Below are positions 3,208 through 12,901 of a stretch of 64,000 nucleotides of DNA, piece after piece. Every line of letters begins with the position of its first letter. Within the stretch, counting starts at the first letter, position 1. The stretch spans positions 1 through 64,000 of IMG/VR virus record IMGVR_UViG_3300012954_000009; one strand, written 5' to 3'. The position numbers and the translations under genes were made by a program. The notes below the pieces were generated by a model that was given only the letters and a program-made list of their open reading frames with translations, was not told the DNA's origin and did not search any database. This DNA comes from a virus.

Positions 3208-3213
3208 TTTATC

Positions 3214-3480
3214 ATGATTATACAACTAGCCAATGGAAGAATTATAGAATGTTCAGTAGAACAGTATCTTTCATTGACTGATCAAGAAGTCAAAGATCTT
3301 GAAGGCCTAAGCTCACATTATACAAAAGAGGTAGGTAATCCATATTATCACATGTTTCATAAAGGCCGCACAGCAGCTGAAAGAGATATGTTAGATGAAG
3401 AGGAGTATGAACCTCAACTTGATGAGATAACTGCAGTAGAAAAGATGGATGATCCATACTTTCGTGCTGATGATATCTAA
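3214..3480 (+). CDS. Hypothetical acidic protein
   Basis: MIIQLANGRIIECSVEQYL...; start moved from 3196 to 3214, downstream of the promoter box. Confidence 0.75.
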   Translation: MIIQLANGRIIECSVEQYLSLTDQEVKDLEGLSSHYTKEVGNPYYHMFHKGRTAAERDMLDEEEYEPQLDEITAVEKMDDPYFRADDI

Positions 3481-4177: not shown

Positions 4178-4756
4178 ATGTTATCACTAAAACAACAAAA
4201 AATTCTAAAACAAGAACAAGATATACTAAAACTTAAATTAAGAGAAGAAAGATATGCATATATTGGGATATTATCTGAGTATCAGTTACACCCACCAAGT
4301 TTAATTCAACAATTGGATTACACTAAACTTAATCCTTATCAACATTTTTTGTTTAAACGTGTACTCCACGGTTTAAACATGTATGATAAGACTGAGATTG
4401 AGAAAATGCATTGGGATAAAAAGAGAAGAATAAAAAAAGTTTGGAGGAAAGGTCAAGAGACTATAAATGAGTTCAAACAATACATATGTTATAAGGATGC
4501 TAACAAAATTTTTAGTATCTTTAGCCATAGTCCTTTAGCTAAAGGTTTCCTGGATACACCTTTTGAATATGTACCAGGTATAAGAAACAAGATGACTCTC
4601 AAAGAAGTTAATCTTACCTATGAAGATGTTATCATTAAGTTTATGCAGAAGGGACTATTACCTAAAAACTTTTTATCAATAAAACCACATGGGAATCAGA
4701 AAAGTTTCACAAAAAATGGCCCAAAAAAACAGAGAGTACAGCAAGCTCAGGCGTAA
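4178..4756 (+). CDS. Hypothetical basic protein
   Basis: 192-aa ORF. Confidence 0.75.
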   Translation: MLSLKQQKILKQEQDILKLKLREERYAYIGILSEYQLHPPSLIQQLDYTKLNPYQHFLFKRVLHGLNMYDKTEIEKMHWDKKRRIKKVWRKGQETINEFKQYICYKDANKIFSIFSHSPLAKGFLDTPFEYVPGIRNKMTLKEVNLTYEDVIIKFMQKGLLPKNFLSIKPHGNQKSFTKNGPKKQRVQQAQA

Positions 4757-4958
4757 GTACCTGACTGACAACTCTATATGTAGGGCAAAAATCAATAAAT
4801 GCACTGTCGTAGCTACTGACGTGCATCACATGAGAGGCCGTGGAATCTATCATTTAGATGTAGATACATGGCTTCCCGTGTGTAGAAATTGTCACACTTG
4901 GATTGAGAACAACCCAGTAGATGCTAAGGAATTAGGATACTCTATTAGTAGAGCATAA
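4689..4958 (+). CDS. HNH endonuclease
   Basis: C..C-ATDVHH-RGRG...CRNCHTWIE pattern. Confidence 0.85.
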   Translation: MGIRKVSQKMAQKNREYSKLRRKYLTDNSICRAKINKCTVVATDVHHMRGRGIYHLDVDTWLPVCRNCHTWIENNPVDAKELGYSISRA

Positions 4959-4963
4959 AACCT

Positions 4964-5037
4964 GGTCCCATAGCTCAACTGGATAGAGCAACAGCCTTCT
5001 AAGCTGTAGGTTCTAGGTTCAAATCCTAGTGGGATCA
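4964..5037 (+). tRNA. tRNA-Arg, anticodon TCT
   Basis: Acceptor GGTCCCA/TGGGATC, D-arm GCTC/GAGC, anticodon stem ACAGC/GCTGT with TCT at 4998-5000, T-arm CTAGG-TTCAAAT-CCTAG; no encoded CCA. Confidence 0.97.
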
Positions 5038-5050
5038 CAAAACCAATAAG

Positions 5051-11091: not shown

Positions 11092-11760
11092 ATGTTAAGT
11101 ACAAAAGACATGTCAGCCGGATCAGGTAAGGCAAAACCAGTAATTGGAGTTGGTAATCAAGTAATTAGAATTAATTCTATTAGTTTTGATGTTACTCCTT
11201 ATGACAGTGAAGCACATAATATTGTGTTACACGTAGAAAGTGAGCCTGTTAAAGGTGAGTTTCAAGGTTTCTTGAAAGATGTAAATAAACCAGATGGCCC
11301 AAGATATGAAGGGCAGGTAGGTAGAATTAGATTTTCTCCTTACCCTTATAAAGATGCTACTTTACCTTCAGGTAGAGAGATTCAAAAAGATACTGAAGTA
11401 TTAAAAGCTATGGTATATCTAAGTGAAGTTCTTAATAAAAGGAAAGAGCTAGATATGATTGAGGCTCAGACTATTGAAGATTTTATGGTTTCATGTAATG
11501 AGTTATTTAGTAACAGTGGATTCTTCAATGCATGTGTAGGCGGTAGAGAATGGGAAAATAAAGAAGGTTATGTTAACTATGATCTATATTTACCAAGGAT
11601 GTCTAAAGATGGTATCCCTCTAGAAGCTTTAAATGCTGAGAGCTCTAGACTATTAGAGTTTAATAAGAAAGATCATGTTAGAGAGCTTCAGAAGAAGCAA
11701 GAGTCAAATCAAACTTTTGAACCTGTTAATGCAAGTGCAGGAGATGATTTTGATCTCTAA
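11092..11760 (+). CDS. Putative single-stranded DNA-binding protein
   Basis: Follows the Sak4-like gene; beta-rich; acidic tip GDDFDL. Confidence 0.6.
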   Translation: MLSTKDMSAGSGKAKPVIGVGNQVIRINSISFDVTPYDSEAHNIVLHVESEPVKGEFQGFLKDVNKPDGPRYEGQVGRIRFSPYPYKDATLPSGREIQKDTEVLKAMVYLSEVLNKRKELDMIEAQTIEDFMVSCNELFSNSGFFNACVGGREWENKEGYVNYDLYLPRMSKDGIPLEALNAESSRLLEFNKKDHVRELQKKQESNQTFEPVNASAGDDFDL

Positions 11761-11768
11761 TATAAACT

Positions 11769-11889
11769 AGTAGATTGGGGAGCTGCAACAGGGTGTTAGA
11801 CCAGACGTGGCAACGAGTGCATAAGGATGTCAAATTACAATAGCTATTGTGCGCAATAGTGTGACCAGGGCTCCAGCTCCCAAACTACT
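11769..11889 (+). ncRNA. Candidate multi-stem structured RNA
   Basis: AGTAGATTGGGGAGCTG pairs with CAGCTCCCAAACTACT; inner GACGT/ATGTC and GCTATTG-TGCG-CAATAGT; visibly GC-rich relative to flanks. Confidence 0.65.
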
Positions 11890-11893
11890 TTAA

Positions 11894-12901
11894 ATGTACA
11901 ATATGATAAATACTAAAAAACTTGTAGTAAATATATCAGATGTACCAAGCTATTGGGTTTTCCAATACTATTTAAATCTTAGTGAGAAGTTAACTGGACA
12001 GGATGTAAAGATTAAATCAATCTTTAATCCATCAGAAAGAACACCAAGCATGTGTTTATATGTAGATAAGGCCGCTAATATAGATGGCTCAAAAGCAAAA
12101 CAATATGTCTACAAGGATTTCTCAACAGGTAAATATGGTAATAAGATACATTTAGTTATGTATCTTTTTGATATACAGTTTGCTTATGCTGTGGATAAAA
12201 TAGTGAATGATTACAATAAATTTATACAGAGTGAAAGCTTTGAAGATATTGTATTAAAACCACAAGCACGGTGGAAAGTAGATTATATAAAGAAAAGACA
12301 ATGGACAAAAGCTGATGCAAACTTTTGGTTACCCTTCAATATAGGTGTTAGTATGCTAACATATTATAATGTCTATCCAATAGAATATTATAATTTAATT
12401 CTTGAGGAGGATGGTAATTCAAAGAGTAGTAAAATAAGCGGTCCAGGTATTTATGGATACTTTGATAAAGATGATAATGTATATAAGATTTATAAACCTT
12501 ATAGTAAAAAGCATAAATTCTTCAAAGTTAAACCTCATCTGCAGGGATTAGATCAACTAAAGTATAACCAACCGTATCTAGTTATATGCTCATCTTTAAA
12601 AGATGCTATGTGTATAAAGAGTATGGGTTATAATATAGAAGTTCTTGCACCTGATAGTGAGAATACTGTTATTAAACCTTATGTGCTTGAGAATTTAAAG
12701 ACAAAGTATAAGAAGATAATTACTTTGTTTGATAATGATGAAGCAGGTAAAGCAGCAGTAGATAAATACAATAAGTTATATAACATAACAGGGATAGTAT
12801 CCCCTTTATGTAAGGATATATCAGATGCTATGAAAGAACATGGCTTTGACATCCTTCATAAAGGACTTAAACCTTTACTAAAAAATGTAATAAATGGCTA
12901 A
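11894..12901 (+). CDS. DNA primase, crAss-like DnaG/TOPRIM
   Basis: ERTPSM..YKDFSTG N-domain; SSLKDAM, FDNDEAG, KDISD. Confidence 0.9.
   Translation: MYNMINTKKLVVNISDVPSYWVFQYYLNLSEKLTGQDVKIKSIFNPSERTPSMCLYVDKAANIDGSKAKQYVYKDFSTGKYGNKIHLVMYLFDIQFAYAVDKIVNDYNKFIQSESFEDIVLKPQARWKVDYIKKRQWTKADANFWLPFNIGVSMLTYYNVYPIEYYNLILEEDGNSKSSKISGPGIYGYFDKDDNVYKIYKPYSKKHKFFKVKPHLQGLDQLKYNQPYLVICSSLKDAMCIKSMGYNIEVLAPDSENTVIKPYVLENLKTKYKKIITLFDNDEAGKAAVDKYNKLYNITGIVSPLCKDISDAMKEHGFDILHKGLKPLLKNVING

Follow-up and report, generated by a model that had tools for sequence, protein, structure and literature searches.

Positions 11769 to 11889 (+) of the 64,000-nucleotide stretch of viral DNA analysed here (the window; positions 1 to 64,000 of the IMG/VR virus record IMGVR_UViG_3300012954_000009) hold a member of an uncatalogued family of structured RNAs of approximately 100 nt. 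The family comprises 39 members with six covarying helices and a pseudoknot, and plain terminators or other structured modules can stand in its place. Tentatively, with a probability of roughly 0.4, the RNA is read as a cis-embedded intercistronic module, which occupies a slot where kin phages carry a plain terminator. In kind it is rated among the structured intercistronic RNAs or terminator elements known from phage operons, with the family itself being new.

Phages of the crAss-like group are among the most abundant in guts and oceans, and to our knowledge almost nothing has been learnt of RNA-level control in them. The family offers a test object for the way in which the ratio of SSB (abundant) to primase (scarce) is set in crAss-like phages. 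It also bears on why the ssb-primase junction attracts structured RNAs, and on whether, in phages of Bacteroidota, RNA sensors or ribozymes do the work of protein regulators.

Locus, relatives and conserved fold

A spacer of 133 nt (11761-11893) separates an SSB-like gene from a DnaG-type primase gene, and the element occupies most of it. The flanking genes and the parts of the element are as follows.

11092..11760, +: SSB-like gene, upstream; 222 aa, with an acidic tail ending in DDFDL
11769..11776, +: 5' strand of P1ext, pairing with 11882-11889 (AGTAG/CTACT plus UU/AA)
11778..11784, +: 5' strand of P1, pairing with 11875-11881
11785..11787, +: 5' strand of P2 (GCA), pairing with UGC at 11818-11820
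11791..11794, +: 5' strand of the pseudoknot (GGGU), pairing with ACCA at 11864-11867
11801..11810, +: P2b mini-hairpin CCA-GACG-UGG, near-invariant
11818..11820, +: 3' strand of P2 (UGC), pairing with 11785-11787
11821..11824, +: junction J2/3, AUAA (UUAAU in most members)
11825..11831, +: 5' strand of P3 (GGA, bulged U at 11828, GUC), pairing with 11869-11874
11836..11838, +: 5' strand of P4 (UAC), pairing with GUG at 11861-11863
11839..11844, +: L4 hexaloop AAUAGC, conserved; family consensus R-N-U-W-G-C
11845..11860, +: 16-nt lineage-specific insertion inside the hexaloop, creating the hairpin CUAUUG-UGCG-CAAUAG
11861..11863, +: 3' strand of P4 (GUG), pairing with 11836-11838
11864..11867, +: 3' strand of the pseudoknot (ACCA), in junction J4/3, pairing with 11791-11794
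11869..11874, +: 3' strand of P3 (GGC UCC), pairing with 11825-11831
11875..11881, +: 3' strand of P1, pairing with 11778-11784
11882..11889, +: 3' strand of P1ext, ending 4 nt before the primase start codon
11894..12901, +: DnaG-type primase gene (zinc ribbon and Toprim), downstream; 335 aa

The protein encoded at 11092-11760 has no match in Pfam or PHROG. The best Foldseek matches of its AlphaFold model (mean pLDDT 62) are OB-fold single-stranded DNA-binding proteins (PrgE, SsbA/SsbB; E 0.008-0.1) and these, along with the SSB-type acidic tail, hint that it may be SSB-like. The downstream protein matches PHROG 12622, DNA primase (E 6e-22), and its Pfam matches are Toprim_2, above the cutoff, and Zn_ribbon_DnaG, under it (16.5 bits vs 24.9). 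Its closest GenBank relatives are the primases of crAss-like phages, at approximately 30 % identity, and as the contigs derive from marine metagenomes, this is an uncultured marine crAss-like phage. The element is present once in the 102-kb virus record and has a GC content of approximately 45-50 %, as against 32-33 % genome-wide, with the spacer being the most GC-rich true intergenic one of the record. Folding of the single sequence gave a minimum free energy of -35.4 kcal/mol on the plus strand (z = -0.88), with 38 of 200 shuffles folding equally well, and a z of -1.48 on the minus strand, such that neither strand beats its shuffles. One sequence alone could not show that the fold is real; comparison does.

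Over 500 IMG/VR contigs have a gene for a related primase. The window element has two near-identical copies (L002 and L003), and two diverged types (L070 and L094) have the core of the window in common, with stems that are different yet complementary. The same architecture also occurs in L018, L020, L140, L142, L147, L150, L156, L158, L160 and L167, and minimum free energy folding of individual sequences yields the same layout for many types of the family. A covariance model, R1, was built from 13 homologues with the lineage of the window left out. It matches the window at 11773-11889 (+) with 40.3 bits (E = 8e-6, model positions 1-100) and has no other match there or elsewhere in the 102-kb record; a leader structure at 1933-2014 goes unmatched even with E up to 10 and is thus no member of the family. 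The match is full-length and P1, P2, P2b, P3, P4 and, with one mismatched pair, the pseudoknot can all be formed, these being the features by which membership of the family is defined. Enlarged by two motif scans of IMG/VR followed by R1, the family reaches its 39 members, which score between 26 and 107 bits and all derive from uncultured marine crAss-like phage contigs. The window copy scores lowest of the members with the full architecture, with only three reduced forms below it. When IMG/VR and the JGI metagenomes were scanned for exact patterns of the window-type core, three close types emerged (window, L070 and L094), the remaining matches being chance occurrences in GC-rich coding DNA.

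Beyond these contigs, a scan of 185,579 species genomes of bacteria and archaea for the family motif gave nothing other than chance matches, and neither the window element nor a canonical member has DNA similarity to any of 50,697 GenBank phage records. The Rfam search that the earlier note had named as the check on novelty returned no known family, including at loose thresholds. The sole match of Rfam 15 to the whole window at the gathering score is a tRNA-Arg (4964-5037); on 11600-12050, with E up to 10, no match overlaps the element beyond its first few bases and all are far below the gathering scores; on L018, L020, L025 and L016, with E up to 5, the element is likewise unmatched. The tRNA-Arg(UCU), at 4964-5038, directly follows a small Cys-rich, HNH-like ORF (4689-4958). 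ARAGORN places no tRNA or tmRNA at the element, and a literature search for the core motifs yielded nothing relevant. Contigs of two runs with the label metagenomic RNA-Seq, itself a guess, cover parts of both flanking genes but not the element; being contigs, they would not reveal expression or RNA ends.

The family is called uncatalogued in the sense that it has no Rfam match. PMC10690425, the one broad catalogue of IMG/VR structured RNAs that was found, has 8,495 candidates, and the motif may be among those that it leaves unnamed. The family resembles the orphan phage and metagenome motifs of the Weinberg/Breaker lists in Rfam and of PMC10690425, in that it is supported by covariation and restricted to uncultured viral contigs, but it differs from the Weinberg/Breaker motifs in that no Rfam family matches it.

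The fold consists of a closing stem, a 5' arm, a UUAAU junction and a 3' arm, that is, three stems about one junction, with a pseudoknot that joins the arms. P2 and an inner CCN-GACG-NGG hairpin (P2b) make up the 5' arm, and P3 and P4, the latter with the conserved hexaloop, the 3' arm; the 4-bp pseudoknot pairs an internal loop of the 5' arm with the junction inside the 3' arm. All sequences quoted in the earlier note were located at the positions given there. The closing stem, described earlier from the window alone, was recovered as 14 bp (AGTAG 11769-11773/CTACT 11885-11889, TT 11775-11776/AA 11882-11883 and GGGAGCT 11778-11784/AGCTCCC 11875-11881) with one bulged G (11777) and one A.A mismatch. 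An inner helix of GACGT with ATGTC, proposed at the same time, is not conserved, with GACG forming the loop of P2b (CCA-GACG-TGG) and GTC being part of P3. Two further helices were tried and rejected, namely a long 5' hairpin initially given by RNAalifold, which was lost once more sequences were added, and a 5'-arm inner helix GGUGU/AUACC, which is found in some types only, competes with P2 and was left out.

The covariation check on the elements of related phages supports this fold. In the 39-member alignment, which was fitted to the helices of R1 and thus favours those helices, 94.3 % of the cells hold standard pairs, as against 74 % in column shuffles and 31-51 % when partners are slid by 1-3 columns, with double changes in 19/23 pairs and a covariation score of 0.564 vs at most 0.131 in the slid controls. 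P2, P2b and P4 covary already in structure-blind MAFFT alignments, and the covariation signal of the pseudoknot is unbiased, as the pseudoknot does not form part of R1. The earlier proposal of a conserved structured non-coding element on the plus strand is thereby upheld, by the R1 match obtained without the lineage of the window and by the covariation, and so is the remark that it is too elaborate for a plain terminator. G-U pairs occur at seven positions, where A.C mismatches would result if the other strand were read; these positions fit the plus strand only, so that the plus (sense) strand is the functional one.

The outer stem differs yet stays complementary in every member (AAUAAAU/AUUUAUU, AUAGU/ACUAU, AGUUAUA/UAUAACU, UUGGA/UCCAA). 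The P1 core covaries, with AU, GC, UA, CG and GU at one position and GC, AU and UA at the next, as does P2, which is GCA/UGC in the window and elsewhere GCU/AGC, GUUG/CAAC, GUUG/CAGC, AUUG/CAAU or GUUA/UAAC. The closing pair of P2b changes from A-U to U-A (CCU-GACG-AGG) in L018, L020 and L140. In P3, where all five modelled pairs covary, close kin have GGA/UCC, GGG/CCC or UGG/CCA and other members UGAGG/CCUCA, UGAGA/UCUCA or UAAA/UUUA. P4 (UAC/GUG, UACC/GGUG, AAC/GUU, UGC/GUA) covaries at 3/3 pairs. Likewise, the pseudoknot (UGGU/ACCA, UGGC/GCCA, GAGC/GCUC, GAGU/ACUC, GCAU/AUGC, GCAC/GUGC) is paired in 92-97 % of the cells and covaries at 4/4 pairs. Approximately 35 unpaired nucleotides are conserved in the family, and the UUAA of J2/3 is at least 90 % conserved in the 39-member alignment.

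The conserved core and single copy of the element led to the rejection of a repeat or MITE, as the closing stem varies and the core is conserved, the opposite of the terminal repeats of transposons. The P2 arm, with 36 nt and GUUG...CAAC, recalls type VI-B repeats, which was taken as a lead only. An RNA anti-CRISPR (a solitary repeat mimic) was rejected after the scan for the arm core in 185,579 species genomes, a collection from which uncultured hosts may be missing, gave only chance matches and no array.

Within this family, the window copy is probably a derived variant, judging by a loop insertion, a broken pseudoknot pair, a weak U-tract and a low score. The hairpin GCTATTG-TGCG-CAATAGT (11843-11860) of the earlier note is present, but consists mostly of the 16-nt lineage-specific insertion at 11845-11860; the palindrome ACAATAGCTATTGT that had been seen to overlap it is also present, at 11837-11850. 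The insertion is shared by L002, L003, L123 and L135 and absent from L070 and L094. A contig found in run X3, 95 % identical to the window, is without exactly these 16 letters at 11845 and reads UAC-AAUAGC-GUG, like L070. In the window pseudoknot, G 11791 stands opposite A 11867, a mismatch in one of the four pairs. L003 and the X3 contig have U at 11791, and in the latter this change (G>T) restores the fourth pair. The same contig has C for T at 11835, in agreement with L070, and G for A at 11875, which turns a U-A pair of P1 into U-G. These changes within the lineage of the window respect the fold.

Distribution and genomic contexts

Most members sit between SSB and primase genes, and at least six different intergenic contexts occur overall. 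The element follows a ribonucleotide reductase gene in L254 and lies between a DNA polymerase gene and a DUF932 gene in L239, where a Bacteroidetes-type promoter (TTTG, 19 nt, TAAATTTG) is found immediately upstream. In L260 it comes directly after a 397-aa gene ending in ..PLPF, approximately 330 nt ahead of an exonuclease gene. In L229 and L233 it precedes an SSB-like gene ending in ..DLPF and is followed first by a U9 tail and further on by the -7 box (TATATTTG) of the next gene. Other slots are used in L236, L265, L263/L270 and L266. All copies (39/39) lie on the sense strand of neighbouring early or replication genes, and each complete genome with the family RNA has one copy. The sole two-copy case seen is the 53-kb contig L270, with a full member at 134-233 and, 3 kb downstream, a reduced member (3210-3294; 26 bits) without the GACG hairpin and with a U6 tail.

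Ten complete genomes of kin phages, 110-120 kb in size, are without the family RNA. In most relatives of the primase, the gap between SSB (ending in ..DF[DE]L) and primase is 30-70 nt long and holds a plain hairpin followed by a T-run. G001, G007 and G009 have a plain hairpin with a U-tract in this gap, and the family RNA kilobases away from the primase gene. L143, a close relative of L142, retains the flanks and the outer stem and has a plain hairpin instead of the element. The family RNA is optional, single-copy, on the sense strand, within the early/replication region, and exchangeable for a plain terminator.

This distribution weakens the idea, raised in the earlier note with regard to priming or an origin, that the element is a structure of single-stranded DNA, here taken as serving as a replication origin or as a loading signal for primase or helicase. 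The element does adjoin the primase gene in most members and always lies within the replication module, and folded single-stranded DNA tolerates G-T wobble pairs. However, ten complete kin genomes lack it entirely, it is remote from the primase gene in the three genomes named above, a plain hairpin takes its place in L143, and its orientation always follows transcription, on the sense strand in 39/39 copies. Furthermore, the GC skew of the record follows gene orientation and has no extremum or turning point near 11.8 kb. A DNA-level origin or loading signal is thus most improbable. A G4 oric/plasmid ssi-type initiation signal in particular was rejected, as this would have to be present in all close relatives and tied to the priming machinery, which is not the case.

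The same distribution would suit an autonomous accessory non-coding RNA that acts in trans on some factor of the host or of the phage core, perhaps as a decoy or in counter-defence. Such an RNA would be freed from the operon transcript when transcription terminates after P1 and the long closing stem is processed. A trans-acting RNA is favoured by there being exactly one copy in each complete genome, by the patchy occurrence in close kin and by the six or more intergenic contexts, as well as by the pairing of the 5' end with the 3' end, a trait of many stable RNAs, and by the strongly conserved loops. In addition, the element has a promoter to itself in L239, and in L229/L233 a strong terminator lies ahead of the -7 box of the next gene. 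Against this, a host-type promoter is missing upstream in 34 of 35 copies, with L239 as the exception, and no partner protein tracks the family. In a comparison of five genomes with and eight without the RNA, a small sample with crude gene calling, no protein cluster followed it; with no phage protein co-occurring with the RNA, any partner would be a core phage or host component. A trans-acting role is regarded as somewhat unlikely.

Roles considered for the RNA

The missing host-type promoters fit co-transcription with the upstream gene, in line with the favoured reading of a cis-embedded intercistronic module. The RNA would be transcribed within the operon mRNA and act there in cis. With both ends kept together by the closing stem, it would set off the upstream message (SSB in the window) from the downstream one (primase), either by partial termination, where a U-tract follows, or by blocking 3' exonucleases. 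In the window, the stem would bury 20 nt just ahead of the primase ATG. The conserved core, locked by the pseudoknot, suggests that the boundary function may need a precise, compact fold, possibly with a bound factor, which would be a core phage or host component. In favour of this reading are the kin with a plain hairpin and T-run in the slot, and the U-rich tail that comes right after the closing stem in about ten types (U9 in L229/L233, U6 in L266, U5 in L018/L237/L256). Against it, about half of the types have a weak U-tract or none, and the window has just UUU after the stem, with a consensus terminator scan reporting nothing at the element. In L150, L156, L158 and L256, the element is preceded by another hairpin that resembles a terminator, and the good host-type promoter directly upstream in L239 would make the RNA there a 5' leader. 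A boundary or stability role does not obviously require some 35 conserved unpaired nucleotides, and one copy per genome in varying slots is also expected of an autonomous RNA gene.

Compared with phage intrinsic and intercistronic hairpins, including the RNase III sites of the T7 early genes, the cis-embedded module shares the slot between co-transcribed genes and the stable closing stem, often with a U-rich tail, and kin have a plain hairpin exactly there. It is unlike them in that its "loop" spans 80 nt and forms a three-way junction, complete with a covarying pseudoknot and the many conserved unpaired bases, and in that about half of the types, the window included, have a U-tract that is weak or missing. 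A likeness may also be drawn to the exonuclease-resistant RNAs of flaviviruses, in which a compact fold of junction and pseudoknot could, as a plausible model, protect an RNA end; there is no homology, and the decay enzymes and their direction differ in bacteria.

The earlier note had further proposed a cis-regulator of primase translation. As stated for the element in general this is not supported, as members also occur in other slots and in three genomes lie kilobases from the SSB-primase gap, but a local effect on the primase start is possible in the window, where, as that note had it, the element ends 4 nt before the ATG (11894). The T4 gene 32 operator, a pseudoknot bound by its SSB, and the gene V protein operator of filamentous phages provide models of regulation by protein binding, both resembling the family in that a structured RNA, in its case possibly a regulatory one that binds a protein, adjoins an SSB gene in a replication operon. 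In contrast to both, the family lies downstream of the SSB gene in most members, occurs also without an adjacent SSB gene, and has no similarity to them in sequence or fold. An SSB autoregulatory operator of the gene 32 type was rejected, since it needs the 5' leader of SSB and the window and most other members are 3' of the SSB-like gene. Only L229/L233 precede an SSB-like gene, and there the terminator tail and -7 box intervene.

The RNA has an aptamer-like anatomy, in which a pseudoknot between the arms and a junction go together with many unpaired bases that are conserved, and it could thus be a riboswitch-like sensor whose pseudoknotted three-way junction binds a small ligand, such as a nucleotide-pool metabolite, and in which the ligand stabilises P1 as a terminator stem or as a mask of the downstream start. 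Neighbouring genes of DNA and nucleotide metabolism (SSB, primase, ribonucleotide reductase, DNA polymerase and exonuclease) and the U-tract right after P1 in approximately half of the types agree with a sensor, and the family has what would be expected of a conserved aptamer with covariation. A constant 5'-leader position and an expression platform, however, were not found: the downstream genes vary (primase, DUF932, SSB-like, exonuclease, lipoprotein and unknowns), no alternative (anti-P1) pairing was seen, the next gene in L229/L233 has its own -7 box after the terminator, and the RNA is dispensable in kin with the same genes. A ligand-binding role is held to be unlikely.

Its sense orientation inside operons would also be compatible with a self-cleaving ribozyme, or a dedicated processing site, at which the operon mRNA is cut between cistrons. 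Small pseudoknotted RNAs at scattered intergenic positions of phages are typical of self-cleaving ribozymes, and in its long closing stem the RNA is similar to the RNase III sites between T7 cistrons, which would point to a processing site. On the other hand, the ribozyme models of Rfam give no match to the window (E up to 10), nor to L018 and L020 (E up to 5). The class-specific cores of hammerhead, twister, twister-sister, pistol, hatchet and HDV-like ribozymes were not found by Rfam, and the order of the helices is presumably unlike the nested double pseudoknot of HDV. Cleavage or dedicated processing is held to be quite improbable. That the family forms a new class, whether a ligand-sensing riboswitch or a self-cleaving ribozyme, which controls or cuts replication-gene mRNA, is rather unlikely; if ligand binding or self-cleavage were true, it would be a new functional RNA class.

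Other RNA modules in the SSB-primase slot

A second, unrelated module of approximately 135 nt occupies the same SSB-primase slot in L025 (2870-3003), L151, L163, L166, L173, L175, L182, L183, L187, L188 and L209. Members of this type have a long covarying hairpin and a long-range GCAGG...CCUGC pairing. Their terminator, UAUAGGGG-CACUUACUUGU-CCCUAUA with a U-run, is highly conserved, and its loop is complementary to an upstream AGUAAG, making a switch possible. Among the plain terminator hairpins, those of L034, L052, L054, L061, L092 and L097 share the loop motif CGUGGUUGAC in a GGGUGG/CCACCC stem, and the conservation of this loop suggests that even simple hairpins may be recognised by something.

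Some spacers hold two RNA modules in tandem. In L150 (323-485), L156 (382-482), L158 (355-480) and L256, an extra structured element of 100-160 nt, with a long closing stem and a U-run, lies between the stop codon of SSB and the family member. Long structured SSB-primase spacers of neither module type were seen in L152 (496-600), L153 (502-600), L040 (1407-1509) and L099 (1371-1500), and with such further module types the ssb-primase slot appears to be a hot spot for structured RNAs. L044 (1063-1509) and L266 carry an inserted small ORF of lipoprotein type (MKKLF...C), equipped with terminators of its own, between SSB and primase, which provides further evidence that this junction is an insertion hot spot.
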